Of a stretch of DNA of 64,000 bases, positions 20,583 to 64,000 are shown in pieces. Location: assembly GCA_029785615.1 (NCBI GenBank), contig JAFLZH010000004.1:20545-84544 (forward strand), written 5' to 3'. This stretch comes from Nitrososphaerota archaeon. GTDB taxonomy: Archaea; Thermoproteota; Nitrososphaeria; Nitrososphaerales; Gagatemarchaeaceae. Position 1 is the stretch's first letter. Every line of letters starts with the position of its first letter. The notes under the pieces are model-generated. The model ran no database searches. It saw only the letters and a program-made list of their open reading frames with translations, and was not told where the DNA came from. The position numbers and the translations under genes were made by a program.

Positions 20583-20673
20583 TGGGCCGGGGCGGATTCG
20601 AACCACCGACCCTGGCGCGCGGAGCGTTTCGCCGTGTAAGGGCGACGTCCTAACCATGCTAGACGACCGGCCC
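20583..20673 (-). tRNA. tRNA-Val (anticodon UAC) with an insertion of about 16 nt between the anticodon arm and the T arm
   Basis: Minus-strand read: GGGCCGG TC GTCT AGCATGGTTA GGAC G TCGCC CTTACAC GGCGA [AACGCTCCGCGCGCCA] GGGTC GGTGG TTCGAAT CCGCC CCGGCCC A. All four stems pair. The extra block sits in a non-canonical intron position. Confidence 0.8.
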
Positions 20674-35990: not shown

Positions 35991-36121
35991 GGGGGTATAG
36001 CCCAGCCAGGCAGGGCGACAGGCTCCAGTGACACCAATGGCTGACACGGAAACGTGGATGACTTGACATTGGAGCTGCCTAAGAAACCTGTAGACCGTCG
36101 GTTCAAATCCGACTACCCCCA
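35991..36121 (+). tRNA. tRNA-Trp (anticodon CCA) with a 57-nt intron at the canonical 37/38 position
   Basis: GGGGGTA TA GCCC AGCCAGGCA GGGC G ACAGG CTCCAG[intron 36029-36085]A CCTGT AGACC GTCGG TTCAAAT CCGAC TACCCCC A. Confidence 0.9.
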
Positions 36122-52057: not shown

Positions 52058-52520
52058 AAGGACTCGCGGAGCTCGCCATGGGCGTGATGCCGGCCACTCG
52101 CATAGGAAGCATCTCGTTTCGAGGTCAAACGTCGGGCGCCGCCCGCTCGGTCGGACAGCCGCACTGCCCATGTGCCGCGCCCGGGAAAGGGTTAACTGTA
52201 GTTGAGGGGCCCGCGAAGCCGACGCGAGCCGGTGGACGGGCCACGGGGATCTCCTGGGGAAGTTCCTCCCTCACTGCAGGACGCACGGCGCCAGGAGGCG
52301 CGACCGGAGACGGTCGGCTCCAGAACAGAAACGAGACCCGGCCCACCTCGAGCGATGATGGGGCGACCTTGAGGTCGGTGGGACGCGGGATGAAACGGCT
52401 GACCCGTGCGGAGCAAGGCCAAACGTGGCCGATGAAGTGCCTGCGACAGGCCAGGGTAGGCCGCTGAGCGGAATCCCGTCTAGAACAGAAGGAGGACTAC
52501 GGCCGGCACACGTCGGAGTC
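52058..52520 (+). ncRNA. rnpB: RNase P RNA (type A-like); core secure, 5' boundary uncertain
   Basis: CR-I-like GGGGAAGTTCCTCCC pairs with the CR-V-like ACAGAAGGAGGACTACGG to form P4 with a bulged U. Also present are CAGAACAGAAACGAGACC, GGATGAAACGGCTG, GCGGAGCAAGGCCAAACG and AGGGTAGGCCGCTGAGCGG. P2 is TGTGCCG/CGGCACA. A possible P1 is AGGACTC (about 52059) with GAGTCCT (about 52516). Confidence 0.8.
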
Positions 52521-52557: not shown

Positions 52558-53076
52558 CCATCGGAACAAGCAATGGAGGCTAACCCAAGTGGGGTGCTAG
52601 ATTATCCGAGACTTAAAGTGGGGATGAACACGAATCAGATTCTACCTTTCAATCTGTCTGGGCACAGGTAGGAGGTTACTTCGATGGAGATAGATTGCCC
52701 ACATCCGAGTTGACTCCCCCGTCGTCCTGAAGTTCATCCTCGCTTGGGTTGACAACTAGCGCGAGCGACTGCGATGGCTCAGACTCTCCCTTCTAACGAA
52801 GGGTTTGCAGTCGGGCTGATCTGAACCACGGCAAAGAGGCGCTCGTGCTTCGAGTAGCAAGCACCAGGACGGCGCTGGCTGCCGTAAAGGAGTTGGTAAG
52901 ACATTGTTTCAAGAAGCTCAGAGAATTGCAAGCGACTGTTGATTATTATTAGAACAGGGTTACCGGAACCGCGGTTCTATCAGAATTCAATGAGCTGATA
53001 CAAGCAAGAACACGCCTCGGTAAGACAATGCCATTGGTCCCACTATCGGCATTTGTTGATGCCATGTGTCAAATAG

Positions 53077-56000
53077 CTACGGACGGAGAATTGAAGTCTG
53101 AAGAAGCGAAGAAATGTCGAAGAGAGCAGAAAATCCGGAACCGTGACAGTTTCGAGCCAGGACAGGCAAAGCCTGGGCGGAGGGAAGACACCTCTGCTGG
53201 GAATCATATTTCCCGAGCTTCGTCTGGAGCTCCTCCTCTTCCTTCCTGCGTCGCTTCCCCGCGATGAGGAAGAACCACGCGAAGAAGAATACAAGGGAGC
53301 CCACGAGCATGGGGATGATGAAGAACCAAATCCATGATATCTGGCTCGCAATGCCGACACGAGTGGGCACGCTCTGAAGGTTCCCGATAGCAAAGTTGGT
53401 CCCGCCCAGTCTGGCTATCGGGACAGTCCCGCAGATTGTGAATCCCGCTGTCGTAATGTCAGATGGATTCACCCAGGTGCTCCCGTTCCAGTATTGCATT
53501 CCGGTGCCGGCACCGACAATGGAATTGGTGATGCAGACGTGGGCGTTCAACCCGGTCGGGATGGTCCCGTTACCGACTACGAACACGTCGAAGTATCTGA
53601 TCGCACCGGTAAAGGTCTCGGCGGTGACTCCGTAGGAGGGCAGGGTGAGGTTCGCGAGCTCGATTCTGAGCGTCGTGCCGGGGGCGTTCCCGAGGCCAGG
53701 GATGGAGACCGAGATTCCCGTCGTGGCCGTCTCGTCGACGACGGCCGTGCCGTTGGTCGAGGTCACTGGGAAGACGTCCGAGTGGTAGTTGCCGACGTTC
53801 GTGACTATGAAGGTCGTTGTCGCCACGTCTCCGGGGCGGGTCGCCACGTCGCTCCCGGTCGCGGTGACAGTTTCGGCCCCGGGGGGAGAAGATGGGACGC
53901 TGAACGTAGCCGAGAAGGTCCCGTTGGGACCTACAGTCGCTGCGGCTACCGTACCTCTGCTTATCACGATGTTGACCGTCGCACCAGGAGTGAACCCGGT
54001 TCCGTCCACGGTCACTGGAGTACCTGTGAGCCCCGAAGTCGGCGTGATAGCGATGGCGGGACCTCCAGCCGGAGCGGTAGTGAGGATAAAGACCGCGTAG
54101 GCGACGATTTGCCCGGTGCTAGCGTCGCTTACGACCACCAAGCCATTCTGGCCGAAGGCAGTGAGGACGGTTAGGGGAGGGACGGCGCCTGAGGAAGTTG
54201 AGGTGAACTCGTAGGTCGTCGGACATGGGGACATGGTGCTGAGAGTGACGCCCGGCTCGAAGCAGTAGTAGTAGTTACCACCAGGCGAGAAGTTGGAGCC
54301 GCTGAGGAAGATCAGTGTTCCCGGCGGGCCGGAGGTCGGCGTGATGGTGATGACGGTGGTGGACCCGACAGCCACCGTGTCCACGGGAGAACACGCGCTT
54401 TCAGGGGTGTGGGCCGAGTCGGTGACTTTGTAGGAGTATACCGTCGAGGTGGACGGTGAGGGAGAGAAGCTGGCAGCTGTCGCACCTGAGACAGGGCTGG
54501 CGCACCCTGCTCCCGCGTACCACTGGTAGGAGTATGGGGCTGTCCCGCCTGAGGGGCTGGCCGAGAGGCGGATGGACTGCCCAGCGCTGATGGTCGGGGC
54601 GGAGGGAGTTATCGGTCCGGCGATGAGCTCGCCGTTTACTGTCACGGCGTCACCCCCCACGCAGGACTTGGTGCCCGTCGCGTCGGTCACCTGGACCCAG
54701 TAGGTGGTGGTCGTGGAGGGTGAGACGGTGAAGCTCGAGCTGGTTCCCGATACCTGGCCGCTGCAGTCTGCCCCGGTGAACCACTCGTAGGAATAAGGAC
54801 CAACGCCGCCACTGGGAGTTATGGTGAGGGTGATTGGTTGGCCGCCGTCGATGGAAGGTGAAGGTGGTTCTATCCCGCCAGGCGATAGGGTGGAGCCGTA
54901 GGTGACAGAGCTGGAAGAAGTCGCGGTGTTGCCGTCAGCGTCGGTGACGGTCAGGCCGACGGAGTAGCTTCCAGGGGCCCTGGCGATGACGGTGCATGAC
55001 TGGTCGGAAGGCCCGCACCCCGAGGCGACGGACATTCCGCCTGGGAGGTTCCATGAGTAGGTGTAGGGTGAGGTACCGCCCGAGGCGGTTGCGGTGAACG
55101 TGACGGGCGAACCCAAGGTCGCGCTCACGGGAGCTGACACCAGGACGGAAAGGGGCGCAGGGCCGACCTTGAGGGTCGCCGGGGAAGAGGTCGAAACATC
55201 GTTGGCGCTGTCCGTGACCCTTACGCTCACCGAGTAGGACCCTGGGGCGGCGGAGGTCACTGTGCAGGTGTCGGCGGTGGAGTCGCACCCTGACACCACC
55301 GTGACGCCTGAGGGAATGCTCCAGTAGTAGGTATACGGCGAAGTGCCGCCTGTGGGGGTAACTCTGAAGGTGACGTCACTCCCCGCTTGAATTGTCGCGG
55401 TCGAAGGCGACAGCGGCCCCGCATGGAGCGAAGGCAGGGGAGCTGGGCTGTTTACCGTTACAGTGTCCCCCGCGGAACAGGCAGACTCAGGCGTTGAAGC
55501 AGAGTCGGTGACTTGGTAGTAGTAGGCGGTCGTAGAGGAGGGCGAAGCATCGTATGTAGAGGAGATTGCTCCGCTTATGGGGCTGGTGCAGCCAGCTCCA
55601 GTGAACCATTGATACGCGTAGGCGGTGGTACCGCCGTTCGGGTTTGCAGTAAGGAGCACCGATGAGCCGCTGGAGATGGTAGGCGATGGAGGTGTTATGG
55701 CTCCTGCGCTCAGGGCCGGGTTGACGGTCACCGCCACGGGGCTGGACGTCGAGACTGCGCCAGTCACGCTGTCGACGACGGTTGCACAGTAGTAGGTAGT
55801 TGAAGCGGGCGAGACGGAGACGCCAGTGAGCGGGCTCGTTCCGATGTTGGCATGCGCCGAACCTACTTGGGTGATGTCGAGGGCGCAACTTGTGGACGAG
55901 GAACCGCTGTAAATCGTTATCGTGAAGTCTGCCGTCCCGCCGGTCCAAGACACTTGGAGGGTGCCCGACTGCCCGCTGTCCAGAACGGCGGGTGAAGGCG

Positions 56001-59000
56001 TCGCGGTGACCCCGGAGATCGCCGCGTTGACCGTTACCAAGTCGGTTGGGGAGCTTACAGCCGGAGGATTGGTCGAGGCGTCTGTAACTTCGTAACAGTA
56101 GTAGGTGTTGGAAGTCGGCGATACCAACTGGATGGATGAGGTACCCAGGGGTGTCGTATCAGAGGTACAGGCCGCACTGGACCCTGAGTACCACTGGTAG
56201 GTGTACGAACCGGTTCCGCCTGATGGGTGGGCGGTGAGGGTCAATGATTGGCCGCTGTCGATCGTGGGGGATGCTGGGGTGATGGCTCCAGCCGAAAGAG
56301 CAGTGTCAACAGCTACCTGGTCCGTAGCTGAGCTAGTCGTGGGCGGGTTGGTGGATGTGTCAGATATGCTGTAGCAGTAGTAGGTGTTCGAGGTCGGCGA
56401 CACTACCTGAGCGGATGACGTCCCGAGCGTTGCGGTGTCAGAGGAACAGGTGGAGCTCGAACCTGAATACCATTGGTAGGTGTACGCCCCCGTCCCTCCT
56501 GACGGATGCGCCGTGAGGGTTACCGACTGTCCATTGTCGACGGTCGGGGAAGAGGGAGTGACTGCGCCGGCCGAAAGAGCGGAATCCACTGTGACCAAGT
56601 CGGTCGCCGATGACACCGTGGGAGGGTTCGTCGAAGTGTCCGACAGTGAATAGCAGTAGTATGTGTTGGTTGTGGGTGAAACCACCTGTGTGGAAGCAGT
56701 TCCCAGTGTGGCGGTGTCAGAAGCACAGGAGGTGCTTGACCCGGAGTACCACTTGTATGTGTAGGAGCCGGTTCCGCCTGATGGATTAGCCGTAAGGGTG
56801 ACGGACTGGCCGCTGTCTATGGTAGGACCATTTGGGGTCATTGCCCCCGCTGAAAGTGTACTGTCTACGGTAACTGCGTCGCCAGATGAGCAAGAGGTAG
56901 TTGAAGTGGAGTCAGTCACCTTGACGTAGTACGTGGTAGAGGAGCCAGGCGAGGCAGCAAGAGTGGAGGCCGTCGCTCCAGATATAGGAGAGGTGCTGCA
57001 GTCAGAGGAGGTATACCACTGATAGGTATAGGGGCTGGTCCCGCCGCTGGGATTGACAGCCAGCGTGACAGATTGACCGTTGTCTATTGTGGGAGATGAG
57101 GGGGAGATGGTTCCTGCAGCAAGGGGGACGTTGACTGTCACCAGGTCTGTGGCAGAATTCACGGTTGGAGTGTTGGTCGAAGTGTCCGTGACGGAGTAGC
57201 AATAGTAGGTATTCGACGTCGGAGATGGAGCGTAAGTCGATGAAGTCTGCCCGCTCACCGCCGAATCCGAGGAACAGGCCGCGCTGGACCCTGAGTACCA
57301 CTGGTAGGCGTAGGAGCCGGTACCGCCCGAGGGGTGAGCCGTCAGGGTGACTGATACACCGCTGTTGATGGTCGGGCTAGTGGGGGTAATCGCGCCGGCA
57401 GTCAGCGCGGAATCCACTGTGACAAGATTGGCGGCCGAGGTCGACGTTGGCGGGTTGGTCGATGAATCTGTCACCGAGTAGCAGTAGTATATGTTTGATG
57501 TGGGTGAGACCGCCTGGGTTGAAGCGGTTCCAAGTGTCGTAATGTCGGACGAACACGTTGAACTCGAACCAGAGTACCACTGATACGTATAGGACCCGGT
57601 CCCACCGGACGGATGGGCTGTCAATGTGACGGACTGTCCGCTGTCGATGATTGGAGATGTCGGGGTCACAGCACCGGCAGCCAGTATTGCATCTACCGTC
57701 ACTGTGAAAGTGCTTGAGCTTGCGGTTGGGGTCGGGGAAGAACCTGAAGTCACTCCGGCATCCGTGACGATATAGCAGTAGTAGTAGGTGCCAGCAGAAG
57801 TCGACGTTGGGACAGTATAGGTTGAAGATGTCGCCCCGCTGATGGAGGCATCGCTCGTGCTGCATGTTCCAGGGCTGCTGGCGCTGTACCATTGGTAAGC
57901 GAAAGTCCCCGTGCCTCCTGAAGGATGCGAAGTCAACAACAGCGACTGGCCGCTGTCGATGGTTGATCCTGGTGCTGTGATAGCTCCTGCAGAGGGGGAG
58001 CTGTCGACGGTGACGGCGTCCCCGCTCGAGCAACTTGTAGCGCTCGTCGAGTCGGTGACCAGCACGTAGTAGGTGGTTGTCGACGACGGAAACGGGGAGA
58101 AGGTTTGCGAAGTCCCTAGCACCGAGCCGCTGCAACCCGAGCCGGAGTACCATTGGTAGGTGTAGCCGGGGTTCCCTCCGGTGGGGTTGGCAGTGAGGGT
58201 CACCGACTGGCTGCTATCGATGGTCACGGGGGATGGAGAGATGGCTCCTGCAGAAAGGACGTTGTTTACGGTAAGGGAAGATCCTGACGTGGGAGAAGCC
58301 GCAGAATTCGAGTTGGCGTCGGTGACCTTGGCACAGTAGTAGTAAGTGTTGGCGGAGCCCGGCGAAGTGAAACTCAGAGTTTGTGGCGACGATGACGCGC
58401 CGGTCACCTGTCCAGCCTGAGTGTCGGCGCTCGAGCAGGAAGAACTCGACGTGCTGTAATAGAGGGTGACCGTGAAGGTTCCGGTCCCGCCTGACCATGA
58501 GACGCTTACAGAGTCAGACGTGGTGGGCCCGACAGGGTCCGCCGCGAACGACCCGAGCGAAACGCTGGACGGGAGCGGGTTCGCCGTGACTGTCGTCGGG
58601 GTCGAGGTCGTGGTTACCGGGGTCGAGGCGCTGTCGGTCACCTTCAGCTCGAATGAGTAGACACCGGATGTTGTGAGGGTCCCCGTGGACTGAGTGTAGG
58701 TCGTGACCCCGGCGCTGCATGAGAAGGAAGAGCCCAGGTTGCTGTAGCTGCTGGCGCCAGGGGCCTCCTGCAGCCACTGACAAGTGTAGGATGATGTGCC
58801 GCCGCTGAAGGCCGAGGTGACAGTGAGCGATGTCGAACCGCCCACGTCGAAGGCCGGTGACGCTTGAGAGATAGCAGGGGCGCTCAACGGTGTGTTCACG
58901 GTAACCTGATCGGTGCCAGACCCGGATGTGGGAGCGGGAGTCGACCCGGACGTCACCCCCGTGTCAGTGATGATGTAGCAGTAGTAGTAGATCCCGGACG

Positions 59001-60501
59001 TGGTTGAGGTCGGAACTGCGTAGGAAGCAGAGGTGGCGCCGCTGATCGGTGCGTCACCAGTGGTGCAGGTTCCGGGAGAGCTTGCGGTGTACCATTGGTA
59101 GGTGAAGGTTCCAGTGCCCCCTGTGGGAGCTGGGGCTGTGAGTAGGACGGACTGACCCTGGTCGATCACAGGGGTCGAGGGTGTTACCGACCCTGCCACA
59201 GGCGCGCTGTCAACGGCGACCGCGTCCCCGCTGGAGCAGGCCGTCGCGTGGGTCGGCGTTGCCGAGTCTGTGACATATACGAAGTAGGTTCCGGCCGACG
59301 AGACAGAAAGGGAGGACGCCGTGCCCAGGACCGTCCCTGAGCACCCTGACCCAGAATACCACTGGTAAGTATAGGGTGAGGTGCCGCCATATGGGTTCGC
59401 AGCAAGCGAAATCGACTGCCCGCTGTCAATGGTCGGAGTGGAAGGCGAGATGGCGCCTGCATTCAGAGCGACGGCGGTCACGGCGACTGTAGCAGGCGTC
59501 GAAAACCCCTGAGGTGTAGGTGAATTCGACCCGTCGGACACTTGAAGCTCAAAGCTCCAAGTCCCGGATGTTGTGAGGGTCCCCGTGGACTGAGTGTAGG
59601 TCGTGACCCCGGCGCTGCATGAGAAGGAAGAGCCCAGGTTGCTGTAGCTGCTGGCGCCAGGGGCCTCCTGCAGCCACTGACAAGTGTATGGTGAGGCACC
59701 TCCGCTGAATCCGGAGGTCATCGATAGAGAGGAACTCTGACCCTGGTCTATAGACGACGGCGTGGCCGCGATGGTGGGAGCGACCAGCGCTGGGTTTACA
59801 GTGATGGTCACTTCAGCCGTCGCCGTGTCGGTTGTGACCGTGTCAGTGACGATCAGGCAGAAGTAGTAAGTGCCTGCGGCGGCCGGCGTGTAGTCCAAGG
59901 TCGATGACGTATAGGAGGAGCCCAGGCTCGTCAATGAAGAACATGAAGCGTCTGTGCTTGAGTACCACTGGTAGGTGAAACCGTCTGTTGTCGCACAGTT
60001 TATCGTAGTAGTGACTTTGAAGTCCTCGCCCTTGTTGATCTTCTGATTGGGATTGTTGAATGTGATGCACCCTGTCGTGCCGTAGGCTGCAGAGGTGATC
60101 GGTGTCCCGGTAGCGCAGGTGGAGTTGGCGCATACAATAATGAAGACATTTCCGAACGAGGAGCTTGGGACCGTGTCAGTGATGCCGGACGGTATGTTGC
60201 CAGAGGCATCAGTGGTGAAGGTCCCGTCGGGATGGGATGAGGATGGAGTGCTGCCGGCGTCCAGGCACAGGTTAGAGTGCGCCGTTCCTGACGCAAAGCA
60301 GTACCCTTCCACTGTGTTGGCAGAGTAACCTGTGCCCGACAGCGTGACGACCGTCCCCTGGCCGCCGGAGGACGGGTTTATCGCCAGGGTCGCTGTGCCG
60401 CTGCCAGCGCGCGTTGGGCCAGCAACTGGGATGATGGCGAGCGTGGCCGAGGTCAGCAGCAGGACCGCGACCAGCAGAGACCTTAGCGCACGGGAGTTCA
60501 C
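53077..60501 (-). CDS. Giant secreted, C-terminally membrane-anchored surface protein built from about 20 tandem Ig-like/beta-sandwich repeats
   Basis: 2474 aa with a GTG start. Signal peptide LLVAVLLLTSATLAIIPVAG. Repeats of about 90-100 aa each carry Y(T/A)YQWY(S/T)GS..C. It is extremely Thr/Ser/Gly-rich, with a C-terminal TM helix (WIWFFIIPMLVGSLVFFFAWFFLIAG) followed by KRRRKEEEE. Confidence 0.85.
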   Translation of the reverse strand: MNSRALRSLLVAVLLLTSATLAIIPVAGPTRAGSGTATLAINPSSGGQGTVVTLSGTGYSANTVEGYCFASGTAHSNLCLDAGSTPSSSHPDGTFTTDASGNIPSGITDTVPSSSFGNVFIIVCANSTCATGTPITSAAYGTTGCITFNNPNQKINKGEDFKVTTTINCATTDGFTYQWYSSTDASCSSLTSLGSSYTSSTLDYTPAAAGTYYFCLIVTDTVTTDTATAEVTITVNPALVAPTIAATPSSIDQGQSSSLSMTSGFSGGASPYTCQWLQEAPGASSYSNLGSSFSCSAGVTTYTQSTGTLTTSGTWSFELQVSDGSNSPTPQGFSTPATVAVTAVALNAGAISPSTPTIDSGQSISLAANPYGGTSPYTYQWYSGSGCSGTVLGTASSLSVSSAGTYFVYVTDSATPTHATACSSGDAVAVDSAPVAGSVTPSTPVIDQGQSVLLTAPAPTGGTGTFTYQWYTASSPGTCTTGDAPISGATSASYAVPTSTTSGIYYYCYIITDTGVTSGSTPAPTSGSGTDQVTVNTPLSAPAISQASPAFDVGGSTSLTVTSAFSGGTSSYTCQWLQEAPGASSYSNLGSSFSCSAGVTTYTQSTGTLTTSGVYSFELKVTDSASTPVTTTSTPTTVTANPLPSSVSLGSFAADPVGPTTSDSVSVSWSGGTGTFTVTLYYSTSSSSCSSADTQAGQVTGASSSPQTLSFTSPGSANTYYYCAKVTDANSNSAASPTSGSSLTVNNVLSAGAISPSPVTIDSSQSVTLTANPTGGNPGYTYQWYSGSGCSGSVLGTSQTFSPFPSSTTTYYVLVTDSTSATSCSSGDAVTVDSSPSAGAITAPGSTIDSGQSLLLTSHPSGGTGTFAYQWYSASSPGTCSTSDASISGATSSTYTVPTSTSAGTYYYCYIVTDAGVTSGSSPTPTASSSTFTVTVDAILAAGAVTPTSPIIDSGQSVTLTAHPSGGTGSYTYQWYSGSSSTCSSDITTLGTASTQAVSPTSNIYYCYSVTDSSTNPPTSTSAANLVTVDSALTAGAITPTSPTINSGVSVTLTAHPSGGTGSYAYQWYSGSSAACSSDSAVSGQTSSTYAPSPTSNTYYCYSVTDTSTNTPTVNSATDLVTVNVPLAAGTISPSSPTIDNGQSVTLAVNPSGGTSPYTYQWYTSSDCSTSPISGATASTLAASPGSSTTYYVKVTDSTSTTSCSSGDAVTVDSTLSAGAMTPNGPTIDSGQSVTLTANPSGGTGSYTYKWYSGSSTSCASDTATLGTASTQVVSPTTNTYYCYSLSDTSTNPPTVSSATDLVTVDSALSAGAVTPSSPTVDNGQSVTLTAHPSGGTGAYTYQWYSGSSSTCSSDTATLGTSSAQVVSPTSNTYYCYSISDTSTNPPTTSSATDQVAVDTALSAGAITPASPTIDSGQSLTLTAHPSGGTGSYTYQWYSGSSAACTSDTTPLGTSSIQLVSPTSNTYYCYEVTDASTNPPAVSSPTDLVTVNAAISGVTATPSPAVLDSGQSGTLQVSWTGGTADFTITIYSGSSSTSCALDITQVGSAHANIGTSPLTGVSVSPASTTYYCATVVDSVTGAVSTSSPVAVTVNPALSAGAITPPSPTISSGSSVLLTANPNGGTTAYAYQWFTGAGCTSPISGAISSTYDASPSSTTAYYYQVTDSASTPESACSAGDTVTVNSPAPLPSLHAGPLSPSTATIQAGSDVTFRVTPTGGTSPYTYYWSIPSGVTVVSGCDSTADTCTVTSAAPGSYSVSVRVTDSANDVSTSSPATLKVGPAPLSVLVSAPVSATLGSPVTFTATASGGTSPYTYSWNLPGGMSVASGCGPSDQSCTVIARAPGSYSVGLTVTDADGNTATSSSSVTYGSTLSPGGIEPPSPSIDGGQPITLTITPSGGVGPYSYEWFTGADCSGQVSGTSSSFTVSPSTTTTYWVQVTDATGTKSCVGGDAVTVNGELIAGPITPSAPTISAGQSIRLSASPSGGTAPYSYQWYAGAGCASPVSGATAASFSPSPSTSTVYSYKVTDSAHTPESACSPVDTVAVGSTTVITITPTSGPPGTLIFLSGSNFSPGGNYYYCFEPGVTLSTMSPCPTTYEFTSTSSGAVPPLTVLTAFGQNGLVVVSDASTGQIVAYAVFILTTAPAGGPAIAITPTSGLTGTPVTVDGTGFTPGATVNIVISRGTVAAATVGPNGTFSATFSVPSSPPGAETVTATGSDVATRPGDVATTTFIVTNVGNYHSDVFPVTSTNGTAVVDETATTGISVSIPGLGNAPGTTLRIELANLTLPSYGVTAETFTGAIRYFDVFVVGNGTIPTGLNAHVCITNSIVGAGTGMQYWNGSTWVNPSDITTAGFTICGTVPIARLGGTNFAIGNLQSVPTRVGIASQISWIWFFIIPMLVGSLVFFFAWFFLIAGKRRRKEEEELQTKLGKYDSQQRCLPSAQALPVLARNCHGSGFSALFDISSLLQTSILRP
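58664..58788. repeat. 125-bp perfect direct repeat, copy 1 (copy 2 at 59564-59688)
   Basis: Identical by eye from CCGGATGTTGTGAGGGTCCCCGTGGAC... to ...CAGCCACTGACAAGTGTA. The offset is exactly 900 bp, and both copies lie inside the giant gene. Confidence 0.9.
59564..59688. repeat. 125-bp perfect direct repeat, copy 2
   Basis: See copy 1. It encodes CQWLQEAPGASSYSNLGSSFSCSAGVTTYTQSTGTLTTSG in both repeat units. Confidence 0.9.
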
Positions 60502-60504
60502 GAT

Positions 60505-61044
60505 CTATCTCCTCGCCACCACTACCTCGCAGACGTCGTCCCCCTTCGAGGTGCAGAGCTCCTCCCAGGCCCTGAACTGCTCTCCCTCGAGGACGCTCAT
60601 TGTCCCCTTCAGTAGTCCTACTGTGAAATGGCAGAGCGGAGTCTCGCCCCCGAGCCTCAGCTTGTTGAAGGCGCATCCCTTGATCCTGAAGTTGACCTGG
60701 TCAGATTTGTGCGATGTGAAAGCCTTTAGGACATCCGAGTCGAACACGAACTGCCCCCACCCCACCTCGCTGAGGCTCGCTACGATGTCCGCCATCGAAT
60801 CCTCGGTGAACGGCGTCTCCTTCTTCTGTCGGGTCGCGAGCTCGGCACCAAGCGCCCCGCCGATTTCGTCCATTATGATGGGGGCCCTGGACGGGTCGCA
60901 GGTGTAGATCCGCTTGCAGATAGAGCTCCAGGTGTCTATGTCGACGGCTACGACTCTCCGCCCGTCCCTGACGCTGGTCAGCACTCCGGGGATGGTGTGC
61001 GTGAAAGGACGTGGGTTCTCGGAGGAATGCGGCAGTAGTACCAA
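60505..61044 (-). CDS. V4R-domain (4-vinyl-reductase-like small-molecule-binding) protein
   Basis: GGALGAELA ... SEVGWGQFVF ... FRIKGCAF ... PLCHFTVGLLKGTMSVL ... EELCTSKGDDVCEVVV matches the V4R pattern (GwG, C.f..G.l.G, E..C...Gd..C.f). The stop lies 3 nt before the giant gene's start codon. Confidence 0.65.
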   Translation of the reverse strand: MVLLPHSSENPRPFTHTIPGVLTSVRDGRRVVAVDIDTWSSICKRIYTCDPSRAPIIMDEIGGALGAELATRQKKETPFTEDSMADIVASLSEVGWGQFVFDSDVLKAFTSHKSDQVNFRIKGCAFNKLRLGGETPLCHFTVGLLKGTMSVLEGEQFRAWEELCTSKGDDVCEVVVARR

Positions 61045-61047
61045 GTG

Positions 61048-61068
61048 TTTAACTGTTCAACTGTTAAA
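61048..61068. promoter_or_regulatory. Two overlapping copies of a 12-nt motif (TTTAACTGTTCA / TCAACTGTTAAA) in the V4R-KaiC divergent spacer
   Basis: Related copies TCAACAATTAAA (62250-62261) and TCAACAGTTAAA (62283-62294) lie in the next divergent spacer. A TATA-like ATTATATAA follows at about 61074-61082. Confidence 0.5.
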
Positions 61069-61153
61069 CTCGTAATTATATAAGCTCAGCGCCACGCCTT
61101 CGACCACATCGCTCCCAGAAAGGGACATAAGCCGATTAGATTCCCACCAGAAC

Positions 61154-61882
61154 GTGCGACGGCTTCCTACCGGCGTGGAAGGCCTGGACGAGATTCTTGG
61201 CGGAGGGTTCGTCCCGGGAAGCTGCGTGACCATATCAGGGGGCCCGGGGAGCGGGAAGTCGACGCTTTGCTCACAGTTCCTATACCACGGGTACAAGGAA
61301 CTGGGGGAGAACGGGGTTTATGTCACCTGCACAGAGAGCCCCGAGGAGATCAAGAATAACTTCAGGGACCATGGGTGGGACATCGACGAAGCAATTCGCA
61401 AGGGGAAGATCAAGATCCTCGACATGAGGCCTGTCCTAGCTACCGAGTCGGGACTAATCACCAGAAACGAGGCGCTCTTCGAAGGGGAGACCATCCCGTT
61501 CAGCGTGGTCGCCAAGGGAACCCTGGATGAAATCAGACGGTCACATGCGAGGAGGGTAGTTCTCGACTCTATCACCACCATAGCGATGCAGTACTCTGGC
61601 GAGTTCCAAGTGAGGCAGGGGCTGCTGGGGCTTGTCCAGGGGCTGTCGAACGAAGACTGCGTCAGCCTTCTGATCGTCGAGACAATCGGGGCCAAGAACA
61701 TCATCCCGGCCGAGTGGGCGCTTTCGCACGGCGTGGTCCTGCTCAACTACACCAGCGAAGCGGCCGAGGTAATCAGGTCGATACAGGTGGTCAAGATGCG
61801 AAGGACGGCGCACGACCAGGCTGTCTATGGAATGGAAGTCAGCAAGGATGGGATAGTCGTCCACACCGATGTTAAGGTCTAG
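61154..61882 (+). CDS. Single-domain KaiC/RadA-like (RecA-superfamily) ATPase
   Basis: LPTGVEGLDEILGGGFVPGSCVTISGGPGSGKSTLCSQFLY (Walker A), RVVLDSIT (Walker B); 242 aa. Confidence 0.8.
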   Translation: MRRLPTGVEGLDEILGGGFVPGSCVTISGGPGSGKSTLCSQFLYHGYKELGENGVYVTCTESPEEIKNNFRDHGWDIDEAIRKGKIKILDMRPVLATESGLITRNEALFEGETIPFSVVAKGTLDEIRRSHARRVVLDSITTIAMQYSGEFQVRQGLLGLVQGLSNEDCVSLLIVETIGAKNIIPAEWALSHGVVLLNYTSEAAEVIRSIQVVKMRRTAHDQAVYGMEVSKDGIVVHTDVKV

Positions 61883-61884
61883 AG

Positions 61885-62238
61885 TCAGTATAGGTTCGCG
61901 AGCCTGAAGAAGACCTTCTTCCCGACCCTCTTGCGCGCCAGCGCGCCAAGCCTGACTAGCTGGTTCAGGTAGATTGTCTCCACGCTTCGGTTTCTTCCTG
62001 TCTTCTGACCTACCGCGGAGGCGTCGGCTTCGCCGAGAACCCGCATCGCCTGGAGGGACTTCGTCAACGAGTTAGGGAGCTCACCGAGCTTCAGGTCGCC
62101 CAGGGCCGAACCGGGTTTGGGGAGGGATACTCCTGCCCTGAGCATCTCCTCTAGCGCGGTGACGCGAGCTTCAAGCCGCTTGAGTTTGCTGGCCGTGTCG
62201 TTCCTATGCGTGGTGTTAGACAAATAGAGCTTGGTCAT
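61885..62238 (-). CDS. Small coiled-coil + winged-helix DNA-binding protein
   Basis: LKRLEARVTALEEML followed by a wHTH-like segment (MRVLGEADASAVGQKTGRNRSVETIYLNQLVRLGALARKRVGKKVFFRL). I prefer the ATG at 62238 over the tracked TTG at 62256. Confidence 0.55.
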   Translation of the reverse strand: MTKLYLSNTTHRNDTASKLKRLEARVTALEEMLRAGVSLPKPGSALGDLKLGELPNSLTKSLQAMRVLGEADASAVGQKTGRNRSVETIYLNQLVRLGALARKRVGKKVFFRLANLY

Positions 62239-62299
62239 TGGAGAAGTGTTCAACAATTAAACCCTCTCCCGAATCCGCGCCCTCAACAGTTAAAACGAG

Positions 62300-63841
62300 T
62301 TGGGTTGCTCTAAAAGGCGCGCATTGGAGCAGGAAAGGAGTAGCCATCCACTCGCGGAGGGAGCGCGTGAGGCAAAGCGACCAGGAAAGCTCGTCACTGG
62401 GCATCAGATTCTTGACAAGATCCTGACGGTCTACCAGGGCAACTCGATACTGATGCTGGACGAGACCTACTCGGAGGCGAGGAACTTCATGCAGCTCATC
62501 ATAGAGAAATACAATCCGGGGCTGAAATTCGTCGAGATAACGGACAGGATTTCCCTGGCCAATAGGGAGAACCTAGAAGTCCTCACCGGAGACACTCTTG
62601 CAGACAAGGTCGTCAGGGTGAACGCAATCAGGAGGAAGCATGCGGGCGAGATACTAGTCCACTCGTATCTGCCGTCGCTCCTGATCAGCCAGCCCCAGGA
62701 CAACGTCCTGAAGTACGTCGACGGCTGGAAGAACGCTGCGAAGGAGTTCGAGACGGTCGAAATCTTCCTTATGCCCTCCAACTCCTTCAAGGAGACAGAA
62801 CGGAAGCTGATCGCGCTTCTGGACTGCCGCGTCGAGTTCAGCGTCACCAGGAAGGACAGCAGGATGGCGAAGTACTTTGTAATCTCCGGGTGCTGCAGGG
62901 CGGAGTTCAACATGAAGGAGTTCGAGTATCTCGTCGAGGGCGACAAGCTCCTCGTTGAGTGGGAAGGGAGCCTCACTGACAGGCCCGCCCAGATTTCAGA
63001 AGGCGCACTGGAAAAGAAGTATGGAGAGATCGTCGAAAAGCCAGCGACATTCATCATACAGAAGGGGGCCAACTCGGAGAGGGCTGCGCTCACCGTGTCC
63101 GACTACACCCTAATCCACCAGATTATCGGGATGTCTGCGGGAGAAGTCAGCGCGCTCTTCCCCGAAAGGCCAAAGGAGATCCTGCAGCGGCTCGCCAAGT
63201 GGGACCTTGCGGGCGTAGTGTCGTTCAAACGCGACTTCTCCAGGTCGGCGGGACCGATTCCAGAATCCAAGGATGCGGGCTATTCGGTGCTCAACGCGCT
63301 TAGGCTCCTTCTCCCTGACAGGCTGGTCGCCTGGAGCTACAAGATGGGGACGCAGGCAGTCCCGCTGGAGTACTTCGTGGCGAACAGGGAAGCGCTGAGC
63401 ACGGTGATTGACATGCTCACTGAAAACGCGGCGAACAAAGACAAGAACGACTACTTGAAGTCGATGCCCCAGATCGAGCGGTCGGTGTTGGAGATGGCCG
63501 CGAGGAGGGCGGCGCTGCTGGAGGTGCCGAGGCACCACGAATCCACCGCCGCTGCCGCGGCCAGGAAATACATTCCCAAGATAATGAGGGTGAGCCTACT
63601 GAGCGCATTCATATTGAGGTCGAAGATCGACAAGATCTCTGATACCGAGTACCACATCGTAGTTCACAACTGCTACATCTGCGGCAATCAGACCACCAAG
63701 GTACCCATGTGTTCCTCCGTTTCGGGGGGCCTGGAAGGGGTCTGCGGGACCGTGTTCAAGCTGAAGGCGGATTGCACCGAGGTCAGATGCAAGGCCCTGG
63801 GGGACAGGAACTGCGAGTTCAGACTTCGGCTCTACTCCTAG
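62300..63841 (+). CDS. Fusion of a P-loop-less KaiC-like domain, a middle region and a C-terminal V4R domain
   Basis: The N-terminus LVTGHQILDKILTVYQGNSILMLDETYSEARNFMQLII aligns with the neighbouring KaiC-like protein, but GGPGSGKST is replaced by DETYSEARN. The C-terminus CYICGN...PMCSSVSGGLEGVCG...EVRCKALGDRNCEFRL is V4R-like. The start is a TTG at 62300 or 62324. Confidence 0.6.
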   Translation: MGCSKRRALEQERSSHPLAEGAREAKRPGKLVTGHQILDKILTVYQGNSILMLDETYSEARNFMQLIIEKYNPGLKFVEITDRISLANRENLEVLTGDTLADKVVRVNAIRRKHAGEILVHSYLPSLLISQPQDNVLKYVDGWKNAAKEFETVEIFLMPSNSFKETERKLIALLDCRVEFSVTRKDSRMAKYFVISGCCRAEFNMKEFEYLVEGDKLLVEWEGSLTDRPAQISEGALEKKYGEIVEKPATFIIQKGANSERAALTVSDYTLIHQIIGMSAGEVSALFPERPKEILQRLAKWDLAGVVSFKRDFSRSAGPIPESKDAGYSVLNALRLLLPDRLVAWSYKMGTQAVPLEYFVANREALSTVIDMLTENAANKDKNDYLKSMPQIERSVLEMAARRAALLEVPRHHESTAAAAARKYIPKIMRVSLLSAFILRSKIDKISDTEYHIVVHNCYICGNQTTKVPMCSSVSGGLEGVCGTVFKLKADCTEVRCKALGDRNCEFRLRLYS

Positions 63842-63905: not shown

Positions 63906-64000
63906 TTGCACAGGTTCGCACACATCGCGGATGCGCATCTCGGGGCGCATCGGGAGCCAAACCTCCAGAAGCTCGAGTTGCGGACGTTCGACTCGACGAT
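63906..64000 (+). CDS. Mre11/SbcD-like metallophosphoesterase, N-terminal fragment at the window edge
   Basis: My translation from the TTG at 63906 is (M)HRFAHIADAHLGAHREPNLQKLELRTFDST. It carries the FAHIADxHLG phosphoesterase motif I. It is truncated by the window. Confidence 0.5.
   Translation, partial: MHRFAHIADAHLGAHREPNLQKLELRTFDST

Follow-up and report, generated by a model that had tools for sequence, protein, structure and literature searches.

At one end of a 64-kb stretch of DNA from a Nitrososphaerota archaeon (contig JAFLZH010000004.1 of assembly GCA_029785615.1; the whole stretch is hereafter the window), three neighboring genes encode a KaiC-like ATPase, a small protein, and a fusion protein in which an inactivated KaiC domain (iKaiC) is joined to a predicted winged helix and a V4R domain. 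The reading that we favor, with a probability of roughly 0.5, is that this trio is a regulatory module, and that an adjoining operon, composed of a stand-alone V4R gene and a giant surface-protein gene, is its optional target. The best evidence for wiring that operon to the regulator or regulators of the small-gene and fusion promoters is a short sequence motif that they share. Positions given here are those of the window, and labels of the type L0xx denote homologous loci compared with it. The genes concerned are as follows:

Giant surface-protein gene: 53077-60501, minus strand, 2474 residues, with a GTG start at 60501.
Stand-alone V4R gene: 60505-61044, minus strand, 179 residues, with a TTG start.
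KaiC-like ATPase gene: 61154-61882, plus strand, 242 residues.
Small gene: open reading frame (ORF) 61885-62256, start-corrected 61885-62238, minus strand, 117 residues.
Fusion gene (iKaiC, winged helix and V4R): ORF 62300-63841 (513 codons), start-corrected 62324-63841, plus strand, 505 residues.
5' end of mre11: 63906-64000, plus strand, with a TTG start and a product that begins MHRFAHIADAHLG; it continues beyond the window, which stops 95 nt into the gene.

A reading of the letters and ORFs on their own (the sequence-only reading) had listed four small genes and a 2474-residue surface-protein gene, and all of them are present in the ORF list as described. The extents that it gave stand as ORFs; its 513-residue fusion is shortened to 505 residues, since the homologues show that the protein most likely begins at TTG 62324. 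The TTG at 61044 is taken as the real start of the stand-alone V4R gene because the N-terminus MVLLP is conserved in its homologues, and the small protein begins either at ATG 62238, giving 117 residues, or at a conserved TTG at 62223. The small gene is convergent with the KaiC gene, from which it is separated by a 2-nt gap, and divergent from the fusion gene.

Close relatives of the fusion protein fall into five clusters with 64-100% identity, all of them named “Nitrososphaerota archaeon”; word-indexed homologue searches returned these five close clusters only, even with a 42-sequence profile, and the GTDB species genomes contributed three loci only. The trio, arranged as KaiC (+), small gene (-) and fusion (+), is found in every one of the five lineages, with identities of 74-84% for KaiC, 51-72% for the small protein, whose C-terminal 50 residues are nearly invariant, and 64-76% for the fusion. 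Given enough contig, the genes 3' of the trio are always mre11 (Metallophos, ~417 residues), rad50 (SMC_N, ~674 residues), nreA and alaX; in L007, for example, the Metallophos, SMC_N and Nre_N/Nre_C proteins have 417, 674 and 438 residues (L007 11583-16225). No HerA or NurA genes lie between mre11, rad50 and nreA in these loci, and mre11 is probably a transcription unit separate from the fusion gene. Conservation of a four-gene block beside a large surface protein had been put forward as a check on the sequence-only reading: the trio is kept in all five lineages, but the block that includes the surface protein is not. The state of the V4R-giant pair, with lineages named by the identity of their fusion protein to that of the window, is:

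100% lineage (L007-L010): pair present.
100% lineage, conspecific strain (L006): pair deleted.
76% lineage (L011-13): pair present.
69% lineage (L005/L015): pair absent; the slot holds a tyrosine integrase and a 1142-residue protein.
66% lineage (L050-52): pair absent.
64% lineage (L001-4, L016): pair absent; the RNase P RNA gene abuts KaiC.

A V4R gene paired with a surface-protein gene occurs in three lineages only. At L049, where the V4R protein is 46% identical to that of the window, KaiC is divergent from V4R, and 43 nt 3' of V4R there begins an ORF whose product has a signal peptide. The conspecific strain (L006, GCA_029785355.1) has flanks that are 99% identical by blastn and lacks window positions 52861-60922, which hold the giant gene together with V4R's C-terminal two thirds; this 8062-bp deletion, in place of which there are 33 nt of unrelated filler (L006 8576-8608), has one breakpoint inside the V4R gene and the other 217 nt 3' of the giant-gene stop, and has left behind the decayed V4R codons 1-41. 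The V4R-giant cassette is a within-species presence/absence polymorphism. Given the arrangement at L049, the V4R remnant in L006 and a motif copy that persists in L005 and L050, the V4R/surface-protein operon looks ancestral at this site and repeatedly lost, and on the same three observations a recent insertion of the cassette was rejected.

The occupied slot of the 69% lineage has features of its own. A tyrosine integrase of 448 residues and the 1142-residue protein lie between the RNase P RNA gene and KaiC (L005 6431-6902 and 1483-6430; L015), and next to the integrase the 3' end of the RNase P RNA is repeated as an identical fragment, GGAGGACTACGGCCGGCACGAGTCGAA; the slot may contain an integrative element for which the RNase P RNA gene is the site of attachment.

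The shared motif lies in two intergenic regions, one between the stand-alone V4R gene and KaiC (IGR1) and the other between the small gene and the fusion gene (IGR2). With up to one mismatch allowed, AACAGTTAAA has five matches in 64 kb, where 0.52 would be expected, and all five are within IGR1 or IGR2, three of them in the IGR1 candidate operator. None of the ~60 other genes in the window has such an element; in a shuffle control, one of 100 shuffles likewise gave five matches. Scanning the ~20-kb loci of other lineages returned matches at the same two intergenic regions, plus one stray match. The elements in question are:

Candidate operator of IGR1: 61048-61069, reading GTTTAACAGTTGAACAGTTAAA on the minus strand, with two overlapping AACAGTT cores that form an inverted GTTTAAC/GTTAAAC repeat.
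Putative TATA-like box TTATATAA: 61076-61083, upstream of the IGR1 operator relative to V4R.
Conserved block CCCAGAAAGGGACATAAGCC: 61114-61133, plus strand, ~20-40 nt 5' of the KaiC start, conserved in all four lineages compared.
Candidate operator pair of IGR2: 62249-62296, plus strand, direct repeats TTCAACAATTAAAC and TCAACAGTTAAAAC, 33-34 nt apart.

The IGR1 candidate operator stops 3 nt before the V4R start codon. It is kept in L006, L012 and L049, whereas the flanking parts of IGR1 have diverged between the window and L012; in L049, for all that its V4R protein is 46% identical, the pair GAACAGTTGAACAGTTAAAC is the same letter for letter. The pair (GTTTAACAGTTGAACAGTTAAAC) occurs wherever V4R or a V4R remnant occurs, and where V4R has been lost a single motif copy is left, ~85-95 nt 5' of KaiC (L005, L050). 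The TATA-like box sits ~7-20 nt upstream of the IGR1 pair and is found at the same relative position as TATATAA in L012 and as TTTTATAG in L049. The block CCCAGAAAGGGACATAAGCC, unlike the neighboring IGR1 sequence, is conserved across the four lineages, and is probably the KaiC core promoter.

In IGR2 the first motif copy reads AACAATTAAA in the 100%, 69%, 66% and 64% lineages and AACAATTTAA, a form missed by the scan, in the 76% lineage, whereas the second copy, which ends 28 nt 5' of the fusion start, is present in five of the five lineages and reads AAGAGTTAAA in the 66% lineage. Changes in the IGR2 pair across the lineages compared are single-base at most in the copies found, and the AACAGTT part is as strictly conserved as the A/T-rich part. 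Placed and conserved in this way, the motif would be consistent with an operator common to both regions, to whose regulon the adhesin operon would belong as an optional member.

Further afield, in distant loci of the fusion family, the AACNGTT core shows no clear enrichment (0.29 per kb), and enrichment there was dropped as a line of argument. Individual AACNGTT-type sites do stand 30-95 nt 5' of the fusion gene (L019 727) or of an operon of the fusion gene with the gene for a protein that we call X, described below (L030 6540, L038 6533-6547). The L038 element reads CAACAGTTAACAATT and resembles the window operator; these cases are too few to call.

The fusion protein itself is divided as follows:

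iKaiC domain, predicted KaiC/RecA fold: residues ~20-220, 62381-62983, plus strand, from AlphaFold2 and Foldseek.
Predicted winged helix: residues ~243-303, 63050-63232, plus strand, from AlphaFold2.
Helical linker and V4R domain: residues ~322-504, 63287-63835, plus strand, from AlphaFold2 and PF02830.

Comparisons of sequence do not reveal the N-terminal domain: Pfam is silent even at E 10, a profile search of the PDB with the fusion family gives no KaiC match, and hhalign of the domain against an alignment of the neighboring KaiCs gives 6% probability only, albeit in a sensible register. Because these tests failed, the assignment rests on predicted structure. An AlphaFold2 model built on an alignment of 42 family members has a predicted local distance difference test score (pLDDT) of 84.9; a model from the six close homologues alone reached pLDDT 45 and was unusable, with weak Foldseek matches to Bet3 and H-NOX, which are V4R-like folds. 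The top 50 Foldseek matches of the 42-member model in the PDB are all KaiC, PH0186 or SSO2452, with E ~1e-7, probability 1.00 and target-normalized template-modeling (TM) scores of 0.60-0.70; among the best are the KaiC CI domain (4tlc; E 7.6e-8, TM 0.66), PH0186 (2zts; TM 0.70, with a root-mean-square deviation of 3.7 A over 221 columns) and SSO2452 (2w0m). Every one of the 42 aligned members has LDETxxE at the position of the P-loop and IHxYLP at that of Walker B. The predicted structure thus confirms a KaiC/RecA fold that has lost Walker A and B.

Between iKaiC and V4R the model predicts a winged helix, an element that the sequence-only reading did not contain, with the topology E243-247, H258-267, H272-278, H283-296, E299-303 and pLDDT ~75-92. 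The C-terminus matches V4R (PF02830) with 37.9 bits against a cut-off of 31, V4R is matched by Pfam in 40 of the 42 aligned family members, and the family profile matches the PDB V4R structures of MJ1460 (2.4e-6) and MopR (0.009). Residues C463, E486, C489 and C497 are invariant in the family and align with MopR C155, E178, C181 and C189; relative to V4R domains of the MopR type, the family has an additional CxxC (C450/C453). As modeled, the fusion has the order iKaiC, winged helix and V4R, the plan of an MsvR-like regulator to which a dead KaiC domain has been added.

The 242-residue ATPase matches the Pfam KaiC family (PF06745) over residues 5-239 with 182.1 bits against a threshold of 26.6 (E 1.4e-53), and its catalytic motifs are intact: Walker A GGPGSGKS, Walker B VVLDS (within RRVVLDS) and KMRRTAH, with G29, P31, G32, G34, K35 and D138 invariant in the alignment used. 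Sequence matches in the PDB are to KaiC (4e-50), PH0186 (9e-32), PH0284 and SSO2452. The protein falls under every NCBIfam equivalog cut-off, those of KaiC, ArlH and RadA included: scores are 133.9 bits against 408 and 106.3 against 546 for the circadian KaiC equivalogs PRK09302 and TIGR02655, 45.3 against 215 for ArlH, 40.3 against 403 for the bacterial-type RadA/Sms model TIGR00416, and ~19-20 against 172-361 for the archaeal RadA and RadB models. It is one domain of 242 residues, as against the double-domain CI+CII circadian KaiC of ~500 residues.

These results bear out most of what had been read from the letters alone about the proteins: a KaiC-like ATPase with a P-loop, a fusion with a pseudo-KaiC N-terminal domain without the Walker A lysine (upheld on structural, not sequence, grounds) and a V4R domain at its C-terminus. 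A check of the folds had been called for as well, and here Pfam recognizes KaiC and both V4R domains, with AlphaFold2 and Foldseek assigning the KaiC fold to the N-terminal domain of the fusion. In the small protein, the sequence pattern indicates a coiled-coil-like helix at the N-terminus and, probably, a winged helix at the C-terminus. Kinship between this winged helix and that of the fusion was considered and dropped, hhalign giving no support for it.

The stand-alone V4R protein carries no DNA-binding domain. It matches PF02830 at residues 119-176 marginally, with 31.3 bits against a cut-off of 31, and the C-terminal region of the NCBIfam MsvR model with E 1.7e-5; its PDB matches are to MopR only, E ~1, over the Cys/Glu motif. 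Across four homologues, down to 46% identity, the MVLLP N-terminus and C138, E162, C164 and C172 are invariant. At 28% identity over 40 residues to the V4R of the fusion it is not a recent duplicate of that domain, and an origin by such duplication is ruled out. Its stop codon (TAG, 60505-60507) lies 3 nt before the giant-gene GTG at 60501, the very spacing given in the sequence-only reading, and a Shine-Dalgarno-like GAGGAG is found 7 nt 5' of that GTG; the short gap and the internal Shine-Dalgarno-like element make co-transcription of the two genes plausible, and V4R is probably the leaderless first gene of the operon. The adjacency of V4R and giant gene is found also in L013 and L049.

The giant protein has the Pfam repeats Ig_3, SprB, PKD, K319L-like_PKD and Ig_7 and, by eye, an N-terminal signal peptide, a C-terminal transmembrane anchor and a basic tail. 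Its gene is present in L007-L010 and partly in L011-13, and absent in L006, L001-5 and L050-52. The length of the protein varies by strain or assembly, from 2474 residues in the window to more than 2750 in L008 (1-8178), and variation is seen also in L010 (3-4151); in L012 (1-2884) an 844-nt gap separates the giant gene from V4R, and in L011 (1-3000) the giant gene is broken into many small ORFs. The internal repeats of the gene are 65-94% identical in DNA, and the variation could come from expansion and contraction of repeats or from assembly errors.

Beyond the close clade, an exhaustive HMMER search with the N-terminal domain of the fusion collected 56 representatives (clusters at 50% identity), mostly of 450-510 residues. 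Named sources are Thaumarchaeota/Nitrososphaerota metagenome-assembled genomes only, Candidatus Caldarchaeum included, and the family's source names are “hypothetical”, “4-vinyl reductase” and “hydrocarbon binding protein” only. Gene contexts were obtained for ~30 distant family loci, whose proteins are 22-33% identical to the fusion, and a KaiC gene recurs among them in differing positions. It stands two genes 5' of the fusion in the window clade, in the order fusion-UbiA-KaiC in L017, ~1 kb 3' of the fusion and convergent with it in L027 and L033, and in the order fusion-UbiA-X-KaiC in L034-37, L040-41 and L043-45; in these distant lineages the distance is ~1-3 kb. That four distinct gene orders keep KaiC close to the iKaiC protein argues for a functional pairing of the two. 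No surface-protein gene turned up among the annotated neighbors of the distant loci.

The most constant neighbor in distant lineages is protein X, of ~390-460 residues with invariant DNxxD and YDDVxD motifs, beside which a UbiA prenyltransferase and a UbiE-like methyltransferase are often encoded. It is found at L018, L021-23, L027, L030-32, L034-45 and L048 (for example, L041 10314-11495, minus strand). Its motifs K..DNxxD and YDDVxDxxxD lie ~150 residues apart and are reminiscent of class I isoprenoid synthases; since the PDB sequence search, like that of Pfam, gave no match, this likeness is a reading of motifs only. Neither the 64-kb window nor L001-16 contains X or UbiA.

Several loci at the edge of the family stand apart. 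The proteins of L046 and L047 (Candidatus Caldarchaeum-type, 446-454 residues) have a C-terminal domain under the Pfam V4R threshold; their gene lies between genes for Mrp-type antiporter subunits, beside a ~335-residue protein with a faint HTH_24 match, and within 6 kb there is no KaiC, X or UbiA. In L019 (2213-3952, minus strand) a 579-residue ORF has a bacterial DnaE-type PHP/PolIII-alpha N-terminus in frame with the C-terminal third of X, and is probably a chimeric metagenome assembly. A DNA-repair theme running through the family (Mre11-Rad50-NreA in the window clade, Dpo4 in L022, SMC_N in L027 and PHP/DnaE in L019) was entertained and rejected, as it is not recurrent.

From the domain identities, the gene order, the patterns of conservation and loss, and the place and conservation of the motif, we infer a mechanism, conditional as to the motif-binding protein, the sign of regulation, the contact between KaiC and iKaiC, and the ligand. 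The conserved unit would consist of an active single-domain KaiC-like ATPase, a small protein with a coiled coil and a probable winged helix, and the 505-residue protein of iKaiC, winged helix and V4R. The fusion would be a ligand- or redox-gated transcription factor, working like MsvR, with the dead KaiC domain docking it on the neighboring ATPase, so that its DNA binding would be set by the nucleotide state of the ATPase as well. The fusion, the small winged-helix protein, or both would bind the AACAGTT-type sites. The two direct copies in IGR2 would then provide autoregulation of the module, while the IGR1 pair, between the TATA box and the leaderless start of the V4R-giant operon, would be so placed as to block recruitment of RNA polymerase, and repression is what one would expect of it; an operator between the TATA box and a leaderless start is the usual geometry of archaeal repressors. 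The V4R-giant operon would be an ancestral and dispensable target and not the module's reason to exist, and the stand-alone V4R protein, as a product of the same operon as the adhesin, could act as feedback by binding the same ligand or by pairing with the V4R of the fusion. In its fullest form, in which a KaiC hexamer recruits the iKaiC/winged helix/V4R factor by KaiC-iKaiC mimicry, V4R signal and KaiC state together gate the AACAGTT operator, and a strain-variable adhesin is turned on or off with its own V4R feeding back, the proposal is a long shot.

The sequence-only reading had instead made the four genes one self-contained switch dedicated to expression or display of the giant adhesin. 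The genes do lie together where the giant gene begins, V4R probably shares a transcript with the giant gene, the arrangement of KaiC divergent from a V4R gene that leads into a secreted-protein gene is found in three lineages, and the motif common to both intergenic regions does link the two divergent pairs. What does not hold is the dedication: the trio and the IGR2 pair persist in three lineages and one conspecific strain without V4R or the giant gene, no proteins with immunoglobulin-type repeats were found among the annotated neighbors of the fusion family elsewhere, and the stand-alone V4R is no duplicate of that in the fusion, and we regard a dedicated switch as distinctly unlikely. An alternative target is offered on the other side of the trio, which might work with Mre11-Rad50-NreA in the repair of double-strand breaks, by controlling or assisting it. 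Wherever the contig reaches far enough, the fusion gene is followed by mre11, rad50 and nreA in an unvarying order, the fusion and mre11 are on the same strand with a gap of ~64-135 nt as annotated (64 nt in the window lineage), SSO2452 and similar KaiC-like proteins are paralogues of RadA, and near the fusion gene L027 has an SMC_N ATPase and L022 a Y-family polymerase. This order, however, is confined to one narrow clade in which all of the flanking synteny is conserved, tblastn found no Mre11, Rad50 or NreA near the ~30 distant loci, and the repair-like neighbors in L022 and L027 do not recur; moreover, no motif copy lies 5' of mre11, which has an ATAAAG box of its own ~25-30 nt before its start, and the window KaiC scores far better on KaiC than on RadA models. 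A role in repair is accordingly improbable.

The distant loci suggest a further possibility, namely that the business of the family is isoprenoid- or quinone-type metabolism, the V4R domain sensing a prenylated or hydrophobic metabolite and regulating the genes for X, UbiA and the UbiE-like enzyme, with the neighbors in the window incidental and the targets elsewhere. In its favor, most distant lineages have X right beside the homologue of the fusion, frequently together with UbiA and the UbiE-like methyltransferase, and V4R domains are annotated as hydrocarbon-binding; but neither X nor UbiA is found in the window or in L001-16, the enzymology of X, without Pfam or PDB match, is guessed from motifs, and a locus-specific motif at the V4R-giant promoter would be left unexplained. 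We consider this unlikely as an account of the locus. Finally, the neighbors could be independent of one another and the AACAGTTAAA elements ordinary promoter sequence of the type made up of a TFB-recognition element and a TATA box. The TTAAA(A) part is indeed TATA-like, the second IGR2 copy is at TATA distance from the fusion start, and the one shuffle in 100 points the same way. Against coincidence stand the ~60 other genes of the window, which do without the element, the separate TATA box upstream of the IGR1 pair, the direct-repeat orientation of the two IGR2 copies, which as promoter elements would need to drive transcription in opposite directions, and the conservation of AACAGTT, which is as strict as that of the A/T-rich part; coincidence seems to us rather unlikely.

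The favored reading, of a regulatory module with an optional adhesin target, has observations weighing against it too. The motif scans covered the 64-kb window and the ~20-kb loci of other lineages, a limited scope, and the downstream IGR2 copy, with its TTAAAA 28 nt 5' of the fusion start, could be nothing more than that gene's TATA box. The close clade has flanking synteny in common, comprising TiaS, AsnC, Tsr3, the RNase P RNA, AlaX and EamA, and since it is one narrow clade whose flanks are conserved anyway, adjacency within it is weak evidence. Around half of the distant lineages (L021-23, L030, L038, L046-48) have no KaiC within 8 kb of the fusion. The winged helix of the fusion is seen in the AlphaFold2 model alone, no Pfam or PDB profile match covering residues ~243-303, and that of the small protein has a weak Pfam match to SoFic-like_C (E 0.003, 18 bits, under the cut-off of 27) and no sequence match found in the PDB.

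Among other features of the window, Rfam finds an archaeal RNase P RNA (52224-52511), an archaeal signal recognition particle RNA and a 5S rRNA, which mark the DNA as archaeal; its GC content is ~0.6. Two tRNA genes lie at 20583-20673 (minus strand) and 35991-36121 (plus strand), of which ARAGORN gave the first only, as tRNA-Val(TAC); being 91 and 131 nt long, and thus longer than 71 nt, both probably contain introns.

KaiC-like ATPases have been proposed as major hubs of archaeal signaling, and yet for hardly any of them has a partner, a DNA target or an output been defined. While the link to the adhesin is optional, and function is deduced throughout for organisms that are uncultured metagenome-assembled genomes, the locus offers a compact testable case that brings together an active KaiC, a dead-KaiC partner predicted both to bind DNA and to sense a ligand, a candidate operator footprinted by phylogenetic comparison, and a natural polymorphism in the presence of the target, and it defines an unannotated, narrowly distributed family of ~56 clusters.

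Of the known systems, MsvR is a redox-sensitive autorepressor of methanogens, composed of a winged helix-turn-helix and a V4R domain whose cysteines modulate DNA binding, and its binding sites are repeats in the promoter of its own gene, which is part of a divergent arrangement (PMC3729527). The fusion is like MsvR in that a predicted winged helix precedes its V4R domain, which is C-terminal and has conserved cysteines, and in that conserved repeats lie in its own promoter region, and the NCBIfam MsvR model aligns with the V4R part of both V4R proteins of the window. With 24.6 and 22.3 bits, over the V4R part only, against a cut-off of 220 for the equivalog NF053755, the two are not members of the MsvR family; the fusion differs further in its inactivated KaiC domain of ~220 residues and long helical linker, in its occurrence in Nitrososphaerota and not in methanogens, and in its pairing with a KaiC-like ATPase. 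Also close are the V4R domains of the phenol sensors MopR, PoxR and DmpR and of MJ1460 (PDB 5kbe, 2osd); the Cys-Glu-Cys-Cys positions of both window V4R domains align with C155, E178, C181 and C189 of MopR, which form its zinc site. In MopR, PoxR and DmpR, V4R is N-terminal within sigma-54 AAA+ activators, unlike the V4R domains described here, which are C-terminal to a winged helix or alone.

The ArlH- and CirA-type KaiC-like regulators, which act in archaeal motility and surface structures (PMC8978795, PMC10983859), resemble the present ATPase in being a KaiC-fold ATPase near a cell-surface-structure gene; the ArlH score of 45 against 215, a locus without archaellum or pilus genes, and the optional nature of the surface-protein link set it apart. 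iKaiC domains are recognized as archaeal signaling modules in PMC5847659, which cites Makarova et al. 2017. As in archaeal KaiC/iKaiC systems, a single-domain KaiC-like ATPase lies here beside sensor and helix-turn-helix proteins, and as in known iKaiC proteins a KaiC-fold domain without a P-loop is fused to signaling domains, with the difference that Pfam fails to recognize the N-terminal domain of the fusion. The combination of iKaiC, winged helix and V4R was not found in the literature searched, which did not extend to Makarova, Galperin and Koonin 2017 (mBio), and may have been described before. The fusion is a variant of two known kinds of protein, the iKaiC signaling proteins and the MsvR-like regulators that join a winged helix to V4R.

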